Below are positions 3,328 to 50,680 of a stretch of DNA of 64,000 nt, piece by piece (the first letter of the stretch is position 1; each line of letters opens with the position of its first letter). The notes below the pieces were generated by a model. The model did not search any database and was not told the DNA's origin. It saw only the letters and a list, made by a program, of their open reading frames with translations. Location: NCBI GenBank assembly GCA_938002255.1, contig CALLAL010000003.1, positions 65,639 to 129,638 of the forward strand, read 5' to 3'. The translations under genes were made by a program, and so were the position numbers. This DNA comes from an uncultured bacterium. GTDB lineage: Bacteria; Desulfobacterota; BSN033; UBA1163.

Positions 3328-6096
3328 ATGGAACAGATTTCAATCGCACTAAAGATCAACGGCAGAATGGAACATCTTGAAATCCCTCCTCAGCGAACCC
3401 TTCTGGAGGTCATCCGAGAAGACCTGCAGCTCACAGGAACCAAATCTGGGTGTGAAGATGGAACCTGTGGCGCCTGTACAGTCTTGCTCGATGGTATTCC
3501 GGTCCGTTCCTGTCTGATCCTTGCTGCAGAAGTCCAGGGACGGGAAATCACCACAATCGAGGGATTGTCAGATGGCGAAAAACTCCATCCCGTGCAAGAA
3601 GCCTTTGTAAAAATGGGAGGAACACAATGTGGATTTTGCACCCCGGGAATGATCTTAACGACCAAAGCGTTACTGGATCAGAATCCTACCCCTACAGAAC
3701 AGGAGATTCGCAAGGCAATCTCTGGAAACCTCTGCCGGTGTACAGGTTATACGAAAATCATTGAATCCGTGCAATCCATTTCAGGTCAGGAATCATCCTT
3801 AAAGGGAAAGGAAAACGTTTTTACCGACTATTCGGTCGTTGGGAAAAGGGTTCCTCGAATTGATTCTGTTCCCAAAGTGAAGGGAGATGCAAAATACTCT
3901 GCAGATCTTTTTCTACCAGGCATGCTTTATGCCAAAGCACTTCGAAGCCCTTATGCCCATGCGAAGATACTCCACATTGATACCAGTAGAGCTGAGAAGC
4001 TTCCTGGAGTAAGGGCGGTCATCACCGGTCACCATGCCATTCCCTACCGATGGGGAGTTTTTGCTTACACCCGGGATATGCAGTTTCTTCCTACAGATAA
4101 AGCCCGATTCGTCGGCCAAGAAATTGCTGCGGTGGCAGCGATTGATGAAGATATTGCGCGGGAAGCGATTGAACTGATCAAAGTAGATTGGGAACCCCTC
4201 CCCTATGTGCTTGATCCCGAAAAGGCATTGCTTGAAGGGGCTCCACTCATTCATGAGGATAAACCCGGAAATATAAGTGTCAGAATCTATGTGAACGAAG
4301 GAGAAGTCGAGCGGGCCCTTTCGGAATCCTTTCTCGTGGAAGAAGGTCGTTTCTCCTCTCCAGAGGAGAATTACTGCCAATTAGAGAGCTATGCTGTGTT
4401 AGCCAATTTCGATAGTACGGGCTTGGACATCTGGTGTCCCAATGCAGGACCTCATATGAAAGCCCGACCTCTCAGCAATGCTTTAGGCATTCCAACCTCA
4501 GACGTACGCGTCCGAAAGGTGACCGTAGGAGGTCATTTTGGAGGCAGGTCTGAAATTTCTCCCGCCGATTTTATGGCAGCCCTCCTTTCGAAAAAGGCTC
4601 GTCGTCCTGTCAAATTGGTCTATACGCGAGAAGAAAATTTCAACTGCGTGCGACAGGTCCATGGAAGCATCACAGAGTGTAAGGTTGGGGTGAACGCTGA
4701 GGGTCAATTAACCGCCATCGATATGAAGGTCATTATGGATGGTGGGGCCTATGCGAGTACCGGACCGATTGCTGCGTCTGTGGCTTATATCATGATCGAA
4801 GAAACCTATAAATTTTCCCATTTTCGTTATGAAGCCATACGAGCTTATACGAATAAACCACCCCGGGGCATGTATCCACACCACCCTCGAACAACCTATG
4901 CAGCACTGGAGTTACTCCTTGACCGGATCTCTGAAAAAATGGGAATGGACCCTCTTGAATTTAGAATCAAGAATGCTGTCCATGAAGGCTATGTGACTCC
5001 AACAAGGTCGATCATCACCTCTTGTGGAGAAGTGGAAACCATGAAATTGGCTGCCGAAAGGGCAGGCTGGAAAGAGAAACGAGGCCATCTTCCCCCTTAT
5101 CGCGGCATCGGTATGGGTTGTGGGGCTATGATTAGTGGGTTTCCCATGGGCATCCGAGGTGGATCAGCCGCCTTTGTCCGCTTCAACGAAGATGGAGATG
5201 TTGTTGTCATCTCCGGAGTGATGGACAATGGCCAGGGGAATGACAGCATGGTGGCTCAAATTGCTGCAGAGGAACTTGGCATCTCAATCGATCGAGTCAA
5301 AGTGATCACAGGCGATACAAGCGTCACGCCCTCTGATCAGGGAGCTTACTCTCAAGCCTCCACCCTCATCTCAGGGGGTGCCGTCAAAGCTGCAGCTGCC
5401 GATGCTAAAGAACAACTTTTAGAAGTAGCCGCTCAGATGTTGGAAGTCAGCAAAGCAGACTTGATCGCACGTGAGGGTCGTATCTTTGTGAAGGGAGAAC
5501 CGGATCGCTCGGTCGATATTTCAAAGGTCGCTAGAACCGCCTTATCCCGGAATCGAGCCATTTTGGGCCGTGGAGATCGATGGCCTGAGGCCGATCCTAA
5601 AAGGGAATGGATCAAAAACCCCAGGGGACAGGTGGCTTCAGCCTACTCTTTCGGAACGGCTGTCGCTGAAGTAGAGGTTGATCCTGAAACAGGGAAGATT
5701 AAACTCCTGAACATGGTGGGAGCCCATGACTGTGGGTACCCGATCAACCCGCTCGCCGTGGAACAGCAGATCCAGCGCTCAGCCATGGAGGCAGGTCCTC
5801 AGGGAGTCCTCATGGAAAGGCATCTCTGGACAGAAAAAGGGCAGAACCTCAATGCCAATTTTTCTGATTATTGGTTTCCGCTGGCTACCGATGTGCCCAA
5901 CATCGAGCCAATCATCGTCAGCTCCAACGATCCTTTTGGGCCTTTCGGCGCTAAAGAAGGGGGGCTTTCTATATCTGTGGCAATGATTGGAGCCGTGGCG
6001 AATGCAATTCAAAACGCGATTGGCATCACGCCTAAAGATTTTCCCGTAACGCCAGAGGTGGTCCTGAAGTTATTGGAGGAAAAGAAATCCCGTTAA
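3328..6096 (+). CDS. Fused [2Fe-2S] small subunit plus molybdopterin-binding large subunit of a xanthine dehydrogenase family enzyme (HcrC-HcrA-like fusion)
   Basis: The N-terminus has the CEDGTCGACTV and QCGFCTPGM 2Fe-2S motifs. About 170 aa later comes aldehyde-oxidase/xanthine-dehydrogenase large-subunit similarity over about 750 aa. It is a single uninterrupted 922-aa ORF. Confidence 0.8.
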   Translation: MEQISIALKINGRMEHLEIPPQRTLLEVIREDLQLTGTKSGCEDGTCGACTVLLDGIPVRSCLILAAEVQGREITTIEGLSDGEKLHPVQEAFVKMGGTQCGFCTPGMILTTKALLDQNPTPTEQEIRKAISGNLCRCTGYTKIIESVQSISGQESSLKGKENVFTDYSVVGKRVPRIDSVPKVKGDAKYSADLFLPGMLYAKALRSPYAHAKILHIDTSRAEKLPGVRAVITGHHAIPYRWGVFAYTRDMQFLPTDKARFVGQEIAAVAAIDEDIAREAIELIKVDWEPLPYVLDPEKALLEGAPLIHEDKPGNISVRIYVNEGEVERALSESFLVEEGRFSSPEENYCQLESYAVLANFDSTGLDIWCPNAGPHMKARPLSNALGIPTSDVRVRKVTVGGHFGGRSEISPADFMAALLSKKARRPVKLVYTREENFNCVRQVHGSITECKVGVNAEGQLTAIDMKVIMDGGAYASTGPIAASVAYIMIEETYKFSHFRYEAIRAYTNKPPRGMYPHHPRTTYAALELLLDRISEKMGMDPLEFRIKNAVHEGYVTPTRSIITSCGEVETMKLAAERAGWKEKRGHLPPYRGIGMGCGAMISGFPMGIRGGSAAFVRFNEDGDVVVISGVMDNGQGNDSMVAQIAAEELGISIDRVKVITGDTSVTPSDQGAYSQASTLISGGAVKAAAADAKEQLLEVAAQMLEVSKADLIAREGRIFVKGEPDRSVDISKVARTALSRNRAILGRGDRWPEADPKREWIKNPRGQVASAYSFGTAVAEVEVDPETGKIKLLNMVGAHDCGYPINPLAVEQQIQRSAMEAGPQGVLMERHLWTEKGQNLNANFSDYWFPLATDVPNIEPIIVSSNDPFGPFGAKEGGLSISVAMIGAVANAIQNAIGITPKDFPVTPEVVLKLLEEKKSR

Positions 6097-6125
6097 ATCA
6101 GAAATGATAAAGGAGGAAGGAGAGC

Positions 6126-7268
6126 ATGAAGGTACTTGTACTGGGTGGAACAGGAAGTATGGGTCAGGGTGTGGCCCGGGACCTGATCAAACAAGAACCG
6201 ATTCAGAAAGTGATCCTCGGAGATATCAATACCGATCCCAATCGTGTCCAAGAGAAGTTACGGTCCAGCCCAAAGGTGTCCCTAACAAAAATAGATGTCA
6301 ATGATCACTCGGGTTTGGTCAAAACCATTCGGGAGGCCGATGTGGTGATCAACTGCGCAGGGCCATTTTACAAGACCGCAGTAGCCGTGGCCCGGGCAGC
6401 CGTAGAAGCCAAAGTCAATTATATCGATATCTGCGACGACTATGAGGCAACGGAGATTCTCTTTGCGTCCGATATCGATGCTGCGGCACGAGCCGCAGGG
6501 ATTACGGTCCTGACAGGAATGGGATCCGATCCCGGAACAAATAATGTCATCGTTCGATGGTATGCCGACCAACTCGATCGGGTGGATGAAATCGCTCTGT
6601 TCTGGGTCGTCAGTATTGCCGAACTTTCAGGGGCAGCCTGGGATCATGGGCTTCATATGACGATTGGAAAAATTCCACAGTATCTCGATGGTAAATTAGA
6701 ATACGTCGAAGGGGGAACGGGTGAGGAGATCACAGAGTTCCTCGAACCCCTTGGAGTCTGTAAGGTTCGCTATGTGGGCCATCCCCAACCCCTCACCATC
6801 CCGAAATATATCAAAGGAGTGAAAAAGGTCGTGGTCAAGGGAGTGCTGATCCCCGCATGGGTGGATGAACTGATTCAACAGCAGAGAGAAACAGGTTTTC
6901 TCGGAGAGGAACCGATTGAAGTGAGGGGAGTGAAGGTTAAGCCCTATGATCTCACCCTTCGGCTCTGGGAGACCATTCCCCAAAATAGAGACAAAGGACC
7001 TCAGTCTTCCGGCCTAAAAGTGATTGTAAAAGGAGAAAAAGACGGGAAACAGATCACCTACACTGCTGACATGGCAGGTCGGATGGCACCCGGTACAGGA
7101 CTTCCGGCTTCCATTGCGGCTCTCATGCTCCAGGCGGGTGAAGTAACGGCAAAAGGAGTCGTTGCTCCAGAAGGCTGCATCCATCCTAAAAAATTTCTTT
7201 CAGAGCTAATTAAAAGGGGAGCCAAAATACACCAGACCGAAACGGTCAAGTCAATCCTTTCGCTTTAG
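6126..7268 (+). CDS. Saccharopine dehydrogenase family NAD(P)-binding oxidoreductase
   Basis: The N-terminus has the Rossmann motif VLVLGGTGSMGQGVARDL. Length is 380 aa, and it is tightly linked to the next gene. Confidence 0.65.
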   Translation: MKVLVLGGTGSMGQGVARDLIKQEPIQKVILGDINTDPNRVQEKLRSSPKVSLTKIDVNDHSGLVKTIREADVVINCAGPFYKTAVAVARAAVEAKVNYIDICDDYEATEILFASDIDAAARAAGITVLTGMGSDPGTNNVIVRWYADQLDRVDEIALFWVVSIAELSGAAWDHGLHMTIGKIPQYLDGKLEYVEGGTGEEITEFLEPLGVCKVRYVGHPQPLTIPKYIKGVKKVVVKGVLIPAWVDELIQQQRETGFLGEEPIEVRGVKVKPYDLTLRLWETIPQNRDKGPQSSGLKVIVKGEKDGKQITYTADMAGRMAPGTGLPASIAALMLQAGEVTAKGVVAPEGCIHPKKFLSELIKRGAKIHQTETVKSILSL

Positions 7269-45455: not shown

Positions 45456-46028
45456 ATGGGACTGAAAGGAAGTCAGACCGAAAAGAACCTGATGGCCGCC
45501 TTTGCCGGAGAGTCTCAAGCCAGAACTCGTTACACCTACTTTGCCAGTGCTGCCAAAAGAGAAGGATATGAACAGATTGCGGCCCTCTTTCTCGATACAG
45601 CGGAAAACGAAAAGGAACATGCCAAACTCTTTTTTAACCTGCTTCAAGGAGGCGAGGTGGAAATTACGGCGGCCTATCCTGCTGGACCTGTTGGAAACAC
45701 TGCCTCCAATTTAAAGGCAGCCGCGGATGGGGAAAAACTCGAGTGGACCACTCTTTATCACAACTTTGCTGAGATCGCAAAACAGGAAGGCTTTCTCGAA
45801 ATTTCCGAAACCTTTAACTGGGTTTCCAAGGTGGAGAAGGCTCATGAGGAAAGATATCGAAAACTACTCAAGGGAGTGACAGAGGGAAAGATTTTTAAGA
45901 AGGAGACCCCTGTCAAGTGGCATTGCCGTAATTGTGGTTATGTTTTCGAGGCCAACGAGGCTCCTGAAAAATGCCCGGTCTGTAAACATCCTCGTGCATT
46001 CTTTGAAGTTTACGCAGAAAATTATTAA
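45456..46028 (+). CDS. rbr: Rubrerythrin with C-terminal rubredoxin-like domain
   Basis: Di-iron ferritin-like motifs (E..E..H twice) are present. The C-terminus has CRNCGY...CPVCKH. Confidence 0.85.
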
Positions 46029-46051: not shown

Positions 46052-46088
46052 GAAAGCCCCGCTTATTTAGCGGGGCTTTCATGTTGTT
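46052..46088. terminator. Hairpin terminator after rbr (possibly bidirectional)
   Basis: The perfect 11-bp stem GAAAGCCCCGC...GCGGGGCTTTC has a 7-nt loop. The flanking T-richness is modest. Confidence 0.55.
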
Positions 46089-46234
46089 GAAAAACGATTG
46101 TTTTGCCTTTTTGCAATGACTTGGAACCTTCTGGTTCTTGTCCTGTAGGTCTTCTAACCTCTCTTTTCCGTTTCTTTATCACACAAGATTAAGGGGTCCC
46201 CTCCCCTCTTAAGAGAGAACCCAAAAAGACCTTA

Positions 46235-46297
46235 ACAGGACGCCTTGCATTTGCATGTGGTGGCAAACCTTTTTACAACCTTTTTAATCGTCATCAT
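46235..46297 (-). CDS. Unannotated 21-aa micro-ORF MMTIKKVVKRFATTCKCKASC, a candidate RiPP precursor peptide
   Basis: A strong AGGAGGTG SD lies 5 nt before ATGATG. The C-terminus is Cys-rich (CKCKASC). It sits co-directional, about 80 nt downstream of the ATP-grasp-like gene, in the rSAM/SPASM cluster. Confidence 0.3.
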
Positions 46298-46377
46298 CCT
46301 CACCTCCTTTCTAACAAAATCATATCATAAAAAACGACAAAGGCAAGCCTTTTTATTGGTCTGGAAATTCTGACCTT

Positions 46378-47448
46378 TCATGCTTCAAAACAGGCTTTAG
46401 GCAAGTGAGAAAGATCAATGGTTTCATACAGTCTTTCTATTTTGATGGAGAGGTCTTGAAGGAGGTGAAAGGTTGGCACAGGAATCTGGAGAGCCGTCCG
46501 TGCAACGACATCCTCATAAAGGTTGTGCCTTAAATAAGAAGGTTCGCTTCTCTCAAACCAGATTTTGGCTTCCCACGACCTTTGGTTAAAGGTCTCTGTC
46601 TTAAACACCTTTTCTTGAAGCCCATAACCTTCACCCGGGGTGACAAAGGCTAATATGCCGTGGTTCGATATGGACCGTGTCGAAAGGTTGGCATACATGC
46701 AAATAAAACGGCCACCGAAAGCAACCGACCGAATCGAAAAATGAAATCCATCCACGGAGCTTTCAATATATTCCTGTAGCAAATAACTCTGACGCTCTGA
46801 TTTCAGTCTGGAAAACTCTTCAGGATGGTAAATCTTGTGTAACCCCCTGCCTCCTCGTCCAACGCGCCGTTTCAATACAAGCACTGATTTCTTTTCTAAA
46901 AACCCCTCCGCCTCTGTGAGGTCGCTGAGATCGAGGCATCTGGTTTCAGGCACGGGAAAGATGGAATGGAGCAATTGATACTGAACCCATTTGTCTTCAA
47001 GTCTCAACCCAGGATGGAAGGTATTAGGGAAAGGCCCCATGCCATCCATCCATATTTTGAAGGGTTTCAGAGCCTCAATGAAAGGGAGCCCCTGAAGATA
47101 CTCTTGAAAAGACTTGCCATAGACTTCTTGAGAGGTGGTCTCAATGAATTTAAAAATGCCCGAAGGTCTTTTCAGGTAAACTTGGTGGGTCAGTTCATAC
47201 TCCTGGGCTCCTCCGGGCAAACCCACATTGACGTCAATGACGAAAGGAGTCACCCCTTGAGAAATCAGAAAATCGATTCCCAAATACATTGCTTTCCATC
47301 CTGAATAAAAATCCTTCCCCTCACAAGCCCGCGAGGGAGGTCTGCTCTGACATCGCCTGTAGAAGGTCGGGTCACTTTTTTGATTCTCCTTCTCCTGATT
47401 CTTCCCGAAAGACTCCCCTGGCACAACACTGGAAGAGATCCGGCGCAA
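46378..47448 (-). CDS. ATP-grasp-like protein with atypical motif order (candidate peptide ligase)
   Basis: The K-loop VLVLKRRVGRGGRGLHKI and the segments LLQEYIES and FHFSIRSVAFGGRFICMYAN are ATP-grasp-like. An E-x-N-x-x-PG-like segment GIDFLISQGVTPFVIDVNVGLPGG lies N-terminal of them. The start is either 47448 (77-nt overlap with the rSAM gene) or 47289. Confidence 0.5.
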   Translation of the reverse strand: MRRISSSVVPGESFGKNQEKENQKSDPTFYRRCQSRPPSRACEGKDFYSGWKAMYLGIDFLISQGVTPFVIDVNVGLPGGAQEYELTHQVYLKRPSGIFKFIETTSQEVYGKSFQEYLQGLPFIEALKPFKIWMDGMGPFPNTFHPGLRLEDKWVQYQLLHSIFPVPETRCLDLSDLTEAEGFLEKKSVLVLKRRVGRGGRGLHKIYHPEEFSRLKSERQSYLLQEYIESSVDGFHFSIRSVAFGGRFICMYANLSTRSISNHGILAFVTPGEGYGLQEKVFKTETFNQRSWEAKIWFERSEPSYLRHNLYEDVVARTALQIPVPTFHLLQDLSIKIERLYETIDLSHLPKACFEA

Positions 47449-48559
47449 AAGGATCCCCCTGAAGTTTGGCCCGATAACGGCATCCGCCCCTGCATTCCTC
47501 CATCACGGAGCAACTGCATCTCAATTGTTGCAACGGAATTCGCGGGACCCTTTCCCAGCAAGCCCGGAGTCCTTCGTCTATCGATCCCACAGGTTCTTCG
47601 CTGAAGAGACCGCACTTGGCGACCTTCCCATCAGGAAAGATGGCGCAGAGATGGGCGCCACAGGTCTGCTGATGCTCCGCGCTATGGAGTCCTCCACCAA
47701 AGGCATATCTTAAAAGAGGTCCTGCCTCCTTAGGTGAAACCCAGAGGTCTTGATGCTCCTCCAATCTTCCTGCAAGGCAGGGAACATCCACATTCCATTC
47801 TTCGATCTGCTTCGATTGGAGAAAGGAGGCTAGTTCATCAAACTCCGCTAAATTATCTCGATGAATCATCGTCGCGATCGAAACTTGAAGATGTGCCTCC
47901 TGGAGACGGTCAATGGCTCGAATGACTTTCTCAAACGTCCCCTCTCCTCGAAGGGATTCATGACCTTTTCTCATCCCATCGAGACTGAGTTGAACTTCAT
48001 GGACGCGAAGCTTTCGGGCATTGTCTTTGTTGATCAATGTACCGTTCGATAGCAAGACGGAACGAAATGGATAATCCCTCAAAACCTCATTGATCTCCCA
48101 GAAATGGGGATGGAGCAAGGGCTCTCCTCCCGAAAGCAGAAGCCTCAGCCCTTGAATTTCTTCAAATTCTTTTAATACCTTGCCTATCTTTTCAAAAGGC
48201 AAATCCTGACAGAGACCCTCTCCGAGATAGCAGTGGCGACAACAGAGGTTGCATCGGTCAGTAATCTGGAATTCCAGATACCGGAGAGAGGGAACCGGTG
48301 AGGGATGAACACAGATGTCTCTTCGGACTGGAGTGTCTGACATGAAAATGAGATTTTCGGAGAGACAGTATTGAATGAATGATTCGTCTTCTTCCTTTAC
48401 AGAAAGGAGTTCCCCTTGTGAACACTTCAGAAGAAATTGAAATGCCTCTTCCCCCAATTCGTAAAGATGGTCGTTTGCGATGTCATACAGATATGGTTCT
48501 TCAAGCCTCTTGAGCGCACAGTGGGGAGAAACCGAGAAGAACTTATTTGTGTAAGACAT
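47372..48559 (-). CDS. Radical SAM enzyme with C-terminal SPASM domain (peptide-modifying maturase)
   Basis: The CNLCCRHC radical SAM cluster motif is present. The C-terminal SPASM Cys set is CGAHLCAIFPDGKVAKCG...CSCSVMEECRGGC. Confidence 0.8.
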   Translation of the reverse strand: MSYTNKFFSVSPHCALKRLEEPYLYDIANDHLYELGEEAFQFLLKCSQGELLSVKEEDESFIQYCLSENLIFMSDTPVRRDICVHPSPVPSLRYLEFQITDRCNLCCRHCYLGEGLCQDLPFEKIGKVLKEFEEIQGLRLLLSGGEPLLHPHFWEINEVLRDYPFRSVLLSNGTLINKDNARKLRVHEVQLSLDGMRKGHESLRGEGTFEKVIRAIDRLQEAHLQVSIATMIHRDNLAEFDELASFLQSKQIEEWNVDVPCLAGRLEEHQDLWVSPKEAGPLLRYAFGGGLHSAEHQQTCGAHLCAIFPDGKVAKCGLFSEEPVGSIDEGLRACWERVPRIPLQQLRCSCSVMEECRGGCRYRAKLQGDPFAPDLFQCCARGVFREESGEGESKK

Positions 48560-48707
48560 GTTCGATCTCTTCTGGAGTCAGGGTCCCATTTTCGAGCAGG
48601 CTTTTCAAGATCTTGAAAGCACCGCATTCCAGATCTTTCTCAGACTCCTTGTAAAAATCGCAGTGGGAGCAAATCAGATGGATAAGAGATTCTTTGTCCA
48701 GGCTCAT
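48543..48707 (-). CDS. Small PqqD-like protein (candidate RiPP recognition element)
   Basis: ECGAFKILKSLLENGTLTPEEIEHVL resembles the PqqD motif (LNETG..IW.LLDG..T..EI). It is 55-70 aa long and overlaps the rSAM start by 17 nt. Confidence 0.45.
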   Translation of the reverse strand: MSLDKESLIHLICSHCDFYKESEKDLECGAFKILKSLLENGTLTPEEIEHVLHK

Positions 48708-48871
48708 CAACAAACCTCTAAACCTATTTATAATCTTAAAAATCCATTCAATCAAGATGAGCCATTCAACATTCCTTTTGGGTTGAGAGGATGAACTCGT
48801 CTGACTTGTACAGACTATTTACCATCTAAATGAAATTGAATGATTCACCCTATTTCACCTACGACTTGACA

Positions 48872-48890
48872 AATGCAACATTGTTGCATT
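48872..48890. promoter_or_regulatory. Perfect 19-bp palindrome AATGCAACATTGTTGCATT, a candidate Fur-family (Zur) box, abutting a TTGACA -35
   Basis: It is a 9-1-9 palindrome. It sits immediately after TTGACA (48866-48871) and 24 nt upstream of the regulator ATG at 48914. It lies in the divergent region shared with the rSAM cluster. Confidence 0.5.
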
Positions 48891-48913
48891 ATCCTGATTT
48901 TAGGATTGGTCAC

Positions 48914-49339
48914 ATGAGAAATGGCCCGAGTAAGATTTTTCTTAGACTTCAAAAGCAGGGGGTTCGGCTTACCCGGGCTCGGGGGGCTATTATTGATCTT
49001 CTGATCAAGAAGCAAACTTTCCTTTCCTTAGCAGACCTTAAGAAGGGCTTGGAAAGAAAGAAGGTTAGGGCTGACCGGACGACCCTTTACAGGGAAATCC
49101 TCTTTTTAAAACAACAGGGTATGATCTGTGAAATACCGATGGGCGGAGGAAAAAAAGGATACAAGATCTGCGAGGATGGCCATCATCACCATCTCATCTG
49201 CATCCGATGTAATAAGGTTGAAGAGATTGCGTTGAAGAACACCCTGGCCCCTCAGGAGAAAGAAATCGCTCGACTAAGGGGTTTCATGGTTTTGGAACAT
49301 CTGCTCGAATTTTACGGGTTTTGTGAGGATTGCCAATAA
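48914..49339 (+). CDS. Fur family transcriptional regulator (Zur-like by genomic context)
   Basis: It has a winged-helix N-terminus. HHHLICIRCNKVEE and C..C at the C-terminus are Fur-family metal sites. It heads an operon with znuACB. Confidence 0.75.
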   Translation: MRNGPSKIFLRLQKQGVRLTRARGAIIDLLIKKQTFLSLADLKKGLERKKVRADRTTLYREILFLKQQGMICEIPMGGGKKGYKICEDGHHHHLICIRCNKVEEIALKNTLAPQEKEIARLRGFMVLEHLLEFYGFCEDCQ

Positions 49340-49617
49340 TGCGCTGGTCTGAATCTGTTTTCATCAAGTGTGCTTTCATTTTGTTGGGGTTATTTAGCCT
49401 TGGCCTCCTTGTCTCCGTTTTTCATCATCATGAGGATGGATTGTCTCATGAGACCTGCCTCCTCTGTGTTCTGATAGCCCATCAAACGGATATGGCGATT
49501 CAGCATGAAGATCCCGCGTTCCTGCCTAATGCCCATCTTCTTTTTTCATCGAACATAGACCCCACCTTTCTTTCAACTTCCCATCAAACATTCCTGATCC
49601 GAGCTCCTCCTGCATAA
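49339..49617 (+). CDS. Small membrane protein with an HHH/Cys motif, translationally coupled to the Fur-family gene (TAATG overlap)
   Basis: One TM helix is followed by VFHHHEDGLSHETCLLCVLIAHQ. Confidence 0.4.
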   Translation: MRWSESVFIKCAFILLGLFSLGLLVSVFHHHEDGLSHETCLLCVLIAHQTDMAIQHEDPAFLPNAHLLFSSNIDPTFLSTSHQTFLIRAPPA

Positions 49618-49666
49618 TCTTGTTCCTCTCGTAAGCCATACTTTTTCGGATAAGGAGGTGTTTGTT

Positions 49667-50680
49667 ATGCCTACCCGTCAGCTGAACTGGGTTGTTGTAG
49701 TCGTCTCTATTTTGATTGTCATTTTTACATCTGTCTCTTGCCAGAAGAAAGAACAAGAGGCAGTAAAAGGTAAGAAGATCAAAGTCATCACCACCCTCTT
49801 TCCTCTTTACGATTTTGCTAAAAACATAGGTCAGGATAAGGCCGAGGTTGTTCTTTTGTTACCCCCTGGTGTTGAACCCCACAGTTTTGAACCTAAACCC
49901 GAGGATATCGTTCGAATTAACAAAGCTGATCTCTTTGTCTTTACGGGCAAATATATGGAGCCCTGGGCAGAGGATGTTCTGAAAGGATTGGATCACAAGA
50001 ATCTGATCGTGGTCGATTCCTCTCATGGGATCTCCTTGATGGAGGAAAAGGGGAAACATGAACACCCACATGGCCACCAGCACGAACATAAAGAAGTCCA
50101 TGGTCACAAAGAGGACCACACACATCAGCATAAGGAAGGACACCATCATCAGATGGATCCTCATTTCTGGCTCGATTTTGGTCATGCCCAAAAGATGATA
50201 GATCATATCCTTGAGGGTTTCGTTCAAAAAGATCCTTCCCATAAGGAGTTCTATCTCCAAAATGCCGAACGATACAAGTCGAGGTTGAACGAACTTGACC
50301 TAAAATTCAAAGAGGTCCTCTCTCGTTGCAAGAAAAAGGTGTTTGTCCACGCCGGGCACTTCGCCTTCGGGTACCTGGCAAAAAGATACGGCCTGGAATA
50401 TGTTTCTGCCTATGGTTTTTCTCCCGATGCGGAACCCTCTCCACAAAAAATGGTTGAGCTGACAAAGACCCTGAAAAAGCATGGCCTTCAGCATATTTAT
50501 CATGAGGAGTTGATCACCCCAAGGGTAGCAGAAACCCTCGCCAAAGAGACCAAAGCTTCTCTATTGAAGCTTCATGGAGCACATAATCTGACCAAAGACG
50601 AATTGGATAAGGGAATTACTTTTATTTCCCTGATGGAGGAAAACCTCAAGAGCCTGGAGGTTGGGCTCCAATGTCAGTAA
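49667..50680 (+). CDS. znuA: Zinc ABC transporter substrate-binding lipoprotein with His-rich loop
   Basis: A lipobox is present. The His-rich loop reads HEHPHGHQHEHKEVHGHKEDHTHQHKEGHHHQ. The fold is TroA/ZnuA-like. An AAGGAGG SD precedes it. Confidence 0.85.
   Translation: MPTRQLNWVVVVVSILIVIFTSVSCQKKEQEAVKGKKIKVITTLFPLYDFAKNIGQDKAEVVLLLPPGVEPHSFEPKPEDIVRINKADLFVFTGKYMEPWAEDVLKGLDHKNLIVVDSSHGISLMEEKGKHEHPHGHQHEHKEVHGHKEDHTHQHKEGHHHQMDPHFWLDFGHAQKMIDHILEGFVQKDPSHKEFYLQNAERYKSRLNELDLKFKEVLSRCKKKVFVHAGHFAFGYLAKRYGLEYVSAYGFSPDAEPSPQKMVELTKTLKKHGLQHIYHEELITPRVAETLAKETKASLLKLHGAHNLTKDELDKGITFISLMEENLKSLEVGLQCQ

Follow-up and report, generated by a model that had tools for sequence, protein, structure and literature searches.

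A compact radical SAM and ATP-grasp gene cassette with a conserved 20-codon micro-ORF as a candidate peptide-maturation system

Organization of the locus

We analyzed a cassette of four genes in a 64,000-nucleotide (nt) stretch of DNA from an uncultured bacterium (the window, to which all coordinates given without a locus number refer). The four genes, present as open reading frames (ORFs) as the original prediction had claimed, run head to tail in the same direction on the minus strand, span 2.5 kb in a region of unremarkable base composition, and encode a small protein, a radical S-adenosylmethionine (rSAM) enzyme, an ATP-grasp ligase, and, from a micro-ORF, a peptide of 20 amino acids (aa). 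The small-protein gene (48543..48707) starts at the ATG at 48707 and encodes an acidic protein of 54 aa with three invariant Cys residues and a predicted all-helical structure. As predicted, it overlaps the rSAM start codon (48559), in fact by 17 nt, and the two genes are translationally coupled; homologues begin at the ATG at 48707, and a longer ORF of 70 aa from a TTG (48543..48755) is probably unused. The rSAM gene (47372..48559) encodes 395 aa with an N-terminal domain of ~90 aa (48290-48559), a CX3CX2C core, and a SPASM-like pattern of C-terminal Cys residues. Between the rSAM and ATP-grasp genes, a spacer of 82 nt contains a terminator-like hairpin with a T-run (47317..47338) that is kept in two related loci, L016 and L005 (related loci carry L numbers), and that lies where most other lineages have the micro-ORF with its hairpin. 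The ATP-grasp gene (46378..47289, with its ATG at 47289) encodes 303 aa and has its Mg-binding hairpin (GIDFL...VIDVNVGLPGG) at the N-terminus. Approximately 80 nt past its stop codon, and behind a strong Shine-Dalgarno sequence (AAAGGAGGTGAGG, 46298..46310) as the prediction had stated, begins the micro-ORF (46232..46294), which encodes MTIKKVVKRFATTCKCKASC followed by a stop codon. Upstream of it lies a promoter-like site (46319..46346; TTGCCT, 16 nt, TATGAT, and an upstream TG; a consensus match only), and similar sequence occurs in L021 and L022. An extra in-frame ATG at 46297 gives the 21-aa reading that had been proposed (MMTIKKVVKRFATTCKCKASC), and homologues place the start at the second ATG. 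A GC-rich hairpin of 12 bp (46194..46222), usually without a U-tract, follows ~10 nt past the stop codon of the micro-ORF.

The micro-ORF is a conserved gene

We recovered homologous loci in two ways. A search with the ATP-grasp protein alone gave 24 sequences (23 loci and the window), 18 of which carry a 20-codon ORF with a CKCKASC end. These ORFs comprise 15 distinct DNA sequences and 7 distinct peptides, with 6, 6, and 19 variable sites at the first, second, and third codon positions, respectively. A scan of metagenome contigs with a degenerate pattern for CKCKASC and a stop codon gave at least 120 stretches, and 111 out of 120 were clearly the same gene. All recovered loci together number at least 125, representing 108 different DNA sequences and 58 different peptides. 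The search pattern leaves codons 2-13 free, and there the entropy summed by codon position was 5.9, 5.9, and 16.1, and variation among the homologues thus falls mostly on the third codon position. Four residues of the peptide (M1, I3, K5, and K8) are invariant across 125 loci, and a Shine-Dalgarno sequence precedes all 124 scorable copies. The micro-ORF is a real gene under purifying selection, not a chance ORF, and it is absent from the gene calls of all related contigs that have gene lists. The original prediction had staked itself on the conservation of this unannotated micro-ORF in homologous clusters, and it is there that we find it conserved, with a length of 20 rather than 21 aa.

In the peptide, a basic leader (MTIKKVxK[KR]F) precedes an invariant core (CKCKASC) that is constant in every locus with a micro-ORF recovered through the enzymes. 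A remote relative carries CKCKSSC, and a remote rSAM gene is followed by MKITKVSKKVAMTCKCKSSC. The window peptide contains neither Asp nor Glu, the core is free of acidic residues in all 58 peptide variants, and the Glu or Asp residues that occasionally occur in the leader are confined to positions 7 and 12. The earlier argument that microviridin-type side-chain chemistry does not fit this peptide therefore holds family-wide. No peptide model in NCBIfam or Pfam matched the micro-ORF, the CKCKASC motif was not found in a literature search, and no alternative micro-ORF was found in the loci that are without a CKCKASC peptide (L005, L007, L010, L015, L016, and L018). One additional ORF of 18 codons, MAKVEKRKKGLCKCKASC (L073, 1260-1322), lies beside genes for ribosomal protein S16 and a KH-domain protein, with no rSAM gene nearby, and either is a distant homologue that stands alone or matches by chance.

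The hairpin 3' of the micro-ORF shows covariation: 88.7% of cells are paired, 9 out of 12 pairs show compensatory changes, and the covariation score is 0.36, compared with 0.22 for shuffles, of which 0 out of 500 scored as high, while slid controls reached at most 0.26. Because a T-run follows in just 7 out of 109 instances, the hairpin looks like a stabilizing or partly terminating stem-loop, as is often found after precursor genes of peptides that are made on the ribosome and modified after translation (RiPPs), and not like a plain terminator. The micro-ORF and hairpin might alternatively form a Cys- and Lys-sensing attenuator leader for a downstream ATP-grasp gene, given that Cys and Lys codons are abundant in the peptide and that the commonest gene order puts the micro-ORF and a strong hairpin directly before the ATP-grasp gene. 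However, the micro-ORF is the last gene of its unit in the window, L021, L022, and L023, which leaves no downstream gene to regulate, and in several loci it stands alone or before a convergent gene. Moreover, the amino acids of the peptide, including Ala-Ser, are fixed while their codons vary, and the scarcity of T-runs likewise speaks against attenuation. This explanation, largely refuted by gene order, was rejected as extremely improbable.

The micro-ORF is linked to the rSAM gene

Adjacency to the micro-ORF was scored where at least 1300 nt of flanking sequence exists. The rSAM gene lies directly upstream of it in 65 out of 72 loci and the ATP-grasp gene directly downstream in 49 out of 69. 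The 54-aa gene lies just upstream of the rSAM gene in 59 out of 62 loci; the commonest order is small protein, rSAM, micro-ORF, ATP-grasp. In the lineage of the window (the window, L021, L022, and L023), the micro-ORF is instead found 3' of the ATP-grasp gene, with its own promoter-like site and hairpin, so that its position has shifted while its sequence is unchanged. On one 17-kb contig (L145/L021), a 9.6-kb insert separates the small protein/rSAM pair from the ATP-grasp/micro-ORF pair, and all four genes are kept; the insert contains genes for an isocitrate/isopropylmalate-dehydrogenase-like protein (Iso_dh), DUF6282, B12-binding, and TctABC proteins and for a sigma-54 activator. Two divergent lineages (L054 and L070, with rSAM enzymes 44-45% identical) lack the small protein and keep the rSAM enzyme and the micro-ORF. 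An enzyme and its substrate would be expected to be adjacent as often as the rSAM gene and the micro-ORF are and, given a constant sequence that keeps the same enzyme companion despite its new position, the micro-peptide is best read as the substrate of the rSAM enzyme. Conservation and linkage together support the idea of a compact peptide-maturation cassette with a linked small-peptide gene, on which the prediction was built. We consider it probable that the locus is a conserved, uncharacterized maturation cassette of the RiPP type whose substrate is the 20-aa product of the micro-ORF.

Several loci depart from these arrangements. L016, the closest relative in the genome-collection scan (ATP-grasp 89% identical), departs from the window right after the ATP-grasp stop codon (~5950-6230), where a transposase-like ORF with a zinc-ribbon N-terminus is followed by the contig end; its micro-ORF region is replaced or displaced. 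Aligning the rSAM/ATP-grasp spacer with the post-micro-ORF spacers of other lineages revealed no clear remnant of a deleted micro-ORF. In L012 (5474-6629), the rSAM gene is broken over two reading frames, which reflects either a frameshift (pseudogene) or an assembly error. One metagenome-assembled genome (MAG), MFD00709.bin.2.41, has two complete cassettes on separate contigs (L008 and L009), each by NifS/NifU genes.

The rSAM enzyme and its small partner protein

In the collections searched, close homologues of the rSAM enzyme number in the hundreds. Pfam Radical_SAM matches the window protein at 77.8 bits and all 44 members of the family alignment, in which the core Cys residues C103, C107, and C110 (CX3CX2C) and eight others (C300, C305, C316, C348, C350, C356, C360, and C378) are invariant. 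The C-terminal residues C300/C305, G311 (near-invariant), C316, C348-x-C350-x5-C356-x3-C360, and C378 follow the seven-Cys SPASM pattern (CX9-15GX4C ... CX2CX5CX3C ... C) except that CXC replaces CX2C. The predicted full SPASM domain is thus borne out by the invariant Cys pattern but not by the Pfam SPASM model, which matches just 3 out of 44 members (best E 0.0014). The best 25 of 74 NCBIfam matches are SPASM-type maturases or cofactor enzymes (ScmE, NirJ, WgkB, GeoRSP, MftC, and others); the matches cover the core only and all fall far below their cut-offs, the best reaching 97 bits versus a cut-off of 400. The only sequence matches in the PDB were SkfB (4e-11), PqqE (2e-6), and a cytosylglucuronate decarboxylase. 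Ahead of the CX3CX2C motif lies the conserved N-terminal domain of ~90 aa. Its pattern resembles PqqD-type domains by eye, from which we infer that it may act as a RiPP recognition element (RRE); Pfam PqqD matches 0 out of 44 family members.

The small protein had been thought to resemble PqqD. It matched no PqqD in Pfam at E<=1 and no NCBIfam family at all, and its AlphaFold model has four helices and zero strands (pLDDT 79). On these grounds we rejected a PqqD or RRE identity: the protein holds the position of PqqD but differs from it in its modeled fold. Its homologues are almost all 54 aa long and conserved along the whole length, with the invariant C13, C16, and C28 within LIC..C.FYKES.KDLECGAFKIL. 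When 1.84 billion cluster representatives were searched with a profile, 118 clusters matched, including remote single-domain and tandem-domain forms, for which there was no match to PqqD or another Pfam family either. Since the remote members that could be placed again adjoin rSAM genes with the same N-terminal domain, the protein is a dedicated rSAM partner, and it represents a new three-Cys partner family specific to this rSAM clade. On a high-GC contig (L148, 3020-3608), a small-protein gene of 78 aa is followed by a 120-aa ORF that joins a fragment of the rSAM N-terminal domain to a near-identical second small-protein domain. We took this apparent fusion (P0407) for a probable tandem duplication of the gene junction and did not use it as evidence.

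The place of the 54-aa gene, where a precursor gene usually lies, and its invariant Cys residues raise the question of which product the rSAM enzyme modifies. The micro-peptide might stay unmodified and bind metal like a mini-metallothionein (CKCKxxC), with the 54-aa protein or another molecule as the rSAM substrate. The Cys-X-Cys-X3-Cys tail of the micro-peptide, which we take to resemble metallothionein motifs, was counted in favor of this idea, as were the recurrent metal and sulfur genes nearby: Fur and ZnuABC-like genes in the window, CbiM and CooT in L001, and NifS/NifU in 25-29 loci. However, such genes vary between lineages and therefore look like inherited synteny rather than parts of the system, and the 54-aa protein is predicted to be folded, is conserved over its full length, and is absent from L054 and L070, which have the rSAM enzyme and the micro-ORF. 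The adjacency of the rSAM gene and the micro-ORF also argues against this explanation, which we regard as quite doubtful.

The ATP-grasp ligase is circularly permuted

The start of the ATP-grasp protein is set by 655 homologues, of which those listed are ~303 aa long and begin with MYLGID. Pfam ATP-grasp_3 matches the window protein at 31.4-31.6 bits versus a cut-off of 23.2, and profile match and fold both place the protein among the ATP-grasp enzymes. The Pfam ATP-grasp-type models cover residues 98-201 only, which is the first half of the profiles, and the motifs that normally come last (in the GIDFL...VIDVNVGLPGG hairpin) are found at the N-terminus. When residues 1-39 were moved to the C-terminus in silico, all four ATP-grasp-type scores rose, and the hairpin aligned to positions 225-257 of the TTL profile, with E improving from 0.25 to 0.005. 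Judged from its sequence, the ligase is circularly permuted, and the description of it as atypical is well founded. The invariant residues (K140, R142, G144-G147, Q172, N209-G211, D6, and N21) and the near-invariant E19 fall at the expected canonical motif sites once the permutation is undone, as assigned by inspection rather than superposition.

The fold is nearest to that of glutathione synthetase- and glutathionylspermidine synthetase-type enzymes; the family profile matched no PDB entry at the sequence level, and the similarity to solved structures is one of fold only. By fold, the relatives are circularly permuted and GSS/GspS-type ligases (PDB 3k1t, 3n6x, 5oeu, 2io7, and 2wyo), LysX/ArgX, and RimK. 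The cassette enzyme is shorter (303 aa versus 424 to 587 residues in the best-matching permuted/GSS/GspS-type structures), and the context of an rSAM gene and a ribosomal-peptide gene is new among these ligases. At E<=1, five NCBIfam families matched, the best being RimK_fam at 25 bits versus a cut-off of 143. Because the nearest neighbors activate C-terminal carboxylates and the micro-peptide has a single carboxylate, that of its C-terminal Cys is the candidate target of the ligase.

Comparison with known systems

The original prediction proposed that the cluster is a member or variant of the grasp-with-SPASM family. The Bacteroidetes grasp-with-SPASM loci (TIGR04192/TIGR04193) correspond to the 'branch 5' graspetide loci (PMC8939145). 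When we checked the TIGRFAM models, TIGR04192 was not among the five NCBIfam families matched by the ATP-grasp ligase at E<=1, TIGR04193 was absent from the best 25 of 74 NCBIfam matches of the rSAM enzyme, and the peptide likewise failed the family models. Membership was therefore rejected. The architecture resembles that of the Bacteroidetes loci, in which a small-protein gene likewise precedes the SPASM gene, a similarity of position only. The grasp-with-SPASM precursors have a GG-type leader and a core in which Asp/Glu occurs with Ser/Thr/Lys for ester or amide links, whereas the cassette peptide has neither the GG motif (0 out of 58 variants) nor an acidic residue in the core. Microviridin-type graspetide ligases in general use Asp/Glu of the core as acyl donors, and no cassette core offers one. 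In our literature search, grasp-with-SPASM was mentioned only in one unrelated paper.

The cassette has more in common with the pyrroloquinoline quinone (PQQ; PqqA/D/E) and mycofactocin (MftA/B/C) systems, which like it combine a precursor that is very short and invariant in its C-terminal core, an rSAM/SPASM enzyme, a small partner gene upstream of or overlapping the rSAM gene, and high conservation of the enzymes across lineages. It differs from them in that the partner is not an RRE, the core is rich in Cys and Lys and does not contain Glu/Tyr or Val/Tyr, and PqqB/C/F and MftD/E are replaced by an ATP-grasp ligase and often a CrtI-like flavoenzyme. The sactipeptide and ranthipeptide maturases (SkfB, SCIFF) resemble the cassette enzyme in that SkfB is its best solved match and in that their substrates are Cys-rich, which makes a thioether the default expectation. 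They are set apart by NCBIfam scores (at most 97 bits versus at least 400), by the absence of an RRE match at the N-terminus of the cassette enzyme, and by its core of 7 residues. Since the hidden Markov models fail, the ATP-grasp ligase is of another, permuted type, the partner is no RRE, and acidic residues are missing from the core, the cassette lies outside the known systems. Its place would be among the radical-SAM-modified ribosomal peptides, as an uncharacterized system.

A proposed mechanism and its alternatives

We propose that the rSAM enzyme, through its acidic N-terminal domain, and/or the acidic 54-aa partner (~-5) would bind the strongly basic leader (MTIKKVxKKF; net charge of the whole peptide ~+6). 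The rSAM/SPASM enzyme would then, by means of a 5'-deoxyadenosyl radical, introduce one or more intramolecular crosslinks into CKCKASC, most likely Cys-derived thioethers if the enzyme behaves like its nearest characterized relatives. By analogy with glutathione and glutathionylspermidine synthetases, LysX/ArgX, and RimK, which act on C-terminal carboxylates of small thiol peptides or proteins, the ATP-grasp ligase may phosphorylate the sole carboxylate of the peptide, the alpha-carboxylate of the C-terminal Cys. The acyl-phosphate could be captured by an amine, either the epsilon-amine of a core Lys, which would yield a macrolactam, or an amine or amino acid from outside the peptide. By stabilizing or partly terminating the transcript, the hairpin 3' of the peptide gene would raise the level of peptide mRNA above that of enzyme mRNA. 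A core that hardly varies at all points to a single defined product, not to an antibiotic that diversifies.

Several observations weigh against this proposal. The invariance of the core is circular for the 120 metagenome loci, since the search pattern demanded CKCKASC, and the claim therefore rests on the 18 micro-ORFs recovered through the ATP-grasp protein and on L147. One locus (L005) has the small protein, the rSAM enzyme, and the ATP-grasp ligase but no micro-ORF within 12 kb. The profile of the rSAM N-terminal domain matched no solved RRE, no protease is conserved nearby, and an FtsX-type ABC transporter is present in 19 loci only. Both the type of crosslink and the substrate of the ATP-grasp ligase are read from relatives by analogy. 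In addition, the ATP-grasp gene is not adjacent to the micro-ORF in 20 out of 69 scorable loci, and it stands alone, with neither rSAM nor micro-ORF within 7 kb, in L007, L015 (Eubacteriales), and L018 (Aminicenantes).

These last points would fit an ATP-grasp ligase that belongs to another pathway and is merely a frequent neighbor, with the system consisting of the small protein, the rSAM enzyme, the peptide, and often a CrtI-like oxidoreductase. Many of the 20 loci without an adjacent ATP-grasp gene have a convergent gene for an FAD oxidoreductase of ~525 aa, the solitary ATP-grasps of the Eubacteriales and Aminicenantes contigs are 52-59% identical, and the ligase shows unusually high conservation for a RiPP tailoring enzyme. 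On the other hand, the ATP-grasp gene directly follows the micro-ORF in the majority of loci (49 out of 69), the micro-ORF of the window lineage has relocated directly 3' of the ATP-grasp gene and stays there despite the 9.6-kb insert, and a sole carboxylate on a C-terminal Cys is the type of substrate used by the closest structural neighbors. We consider this alternative rather unlikely; participation of the ATP-grasp ligase in the system is likely but not certain. The genes next to the stand-alone ATP-grasps (PEPCK, a TonB-dependent receptor, and a LarA-like protein) were uninformative.

The maturation of the peptide could also be pictured more specifically. From the invariant CKCKASC tail, the cassette might make a single defined small product, a peptide-derived redox cofactor, low-molecular-weight thiol, or metallophore, comparable to PQQ and mycofactocin and used by anaerobic, often syntrophic, Thermodesulfobacteriota; the three-Cys helper would replace the RRE as the rSAM partner that presents the peptide, and the permuted ATP-grasp ligase would act on the carboxylate of the C-terminal Cys as glutathione synthetase does on gamma-Glu-Cys. 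Taken as a whole, this picture is speculative and on balance improbable. If the peptide-maturation cassette proposed here is real, it would represent an uncharacterized peptide family, modified by radical SAM enzymes and widely distributed in anoxic sediments and wetlands. At 20 aa, with an invariant Cys/Lys core, its precursor would be among the shortest known. Unusual features would include a new three-Cys partner at the position where PqqD-type RREs usually lie, and a circularly permuted ATP-grasp ligase for which the C-terminal carboxylate is the sole target on the peptide. The cassette also illustrates how gene callers can overlook a key gene of 20 codons.

Taxonomic distribution and neighboring genes

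The loci come mostly from MAGs of Thermodesulfobacteriota/Syntrophaceae, with single contigs of Eubacteriales and Aminicenantes that have the ATP-grasp gene alone. The recurrent neighbors vary by lineage and include a CrtI-like FAD oxidoreductase (37 loci, often where the ATP-grasp gene is missing), NifU (29 loci), NifS (25 loci), an FtsX-type ABC permease (19 loci), and rubrerythrin (11 loci). The window has no CrtI-like oxidoreductase, NifU, or NifS neighbor. Where the CrtI/phytoene-desaturase-like gene is present (for example in L031, L039, L053, L067, L077, L091, and L107; also in L001-L004 and L006), it adjoins the micro-ORF or the ATP-grasp gene, often convergently, and its product may be a further tailoring enzyme. 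Genes for sulfur and Fe-S trafficking recur around the cassette; in L054 (34-2264), NifU-like and TusA-like (CPxP motif) genes lie directly before the rSAM gene, in place of the three-Cys protein.

Divergent from the cassette in the window lies a Fur-family gene (48830-49339), which heads a ZnuABC-like operon. A 95-aa His-containing membrane ORF (49330-49617) overlaps its stop codon and is followed by an ABC substrate-binding protein of the zinc type, which has a long His-rich loop (49658-50680), and by ATPase and permease ORFs (to 52260). Because these zinc-type ABC genes come after it, the regulator is probably Zur-like. The original prediction had linked the cassette to this regulator through a shared palindrome-containing promoter region and had considered metal regulation. 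We found no inverted repeat of at least 8 nt in the shared intergenic region, and a Fur box there was rejected; the only palindrome seen (TGAATcATTCA, 48837-48847) has 5-bp arms and sits in coding sequence, within the first Fur-family codons. The divergent Fur-family gene is, moreover, restricted to the window and L016, its own lineage, with NifS/NifU or other neighbors elsewhere; the Fur-family gene of L022 is another one, co-directional and with a peroxidase gene after it. Since the shared region holds no such inverted repeat, metal regulation of the cassette is unsupported here, and the family as a whole does not share it. Two copies of a direct repeat (TTGAATGG), with starts 18 nt apart, lie at 48744-48769, upstream of the ATG of the small-protein gene.

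On the other side of the cassette, a rubrerythrin gene (45456-46028, plus strand) is convergent with the micro-ORF unit. An Rfam scan of the window returned no family at gathering score, and near the micro-ORF it gave only terminator look-alikes, among them weak matches to small RNAs (tails of isrJ, RsmY, and GcvB) at 46053-46094. This site, between the rubrerythrin gene and the micro-ORF unit, forms a GC-rich hairpin flanked by A and T runs and looks like a bidirectional terminator.

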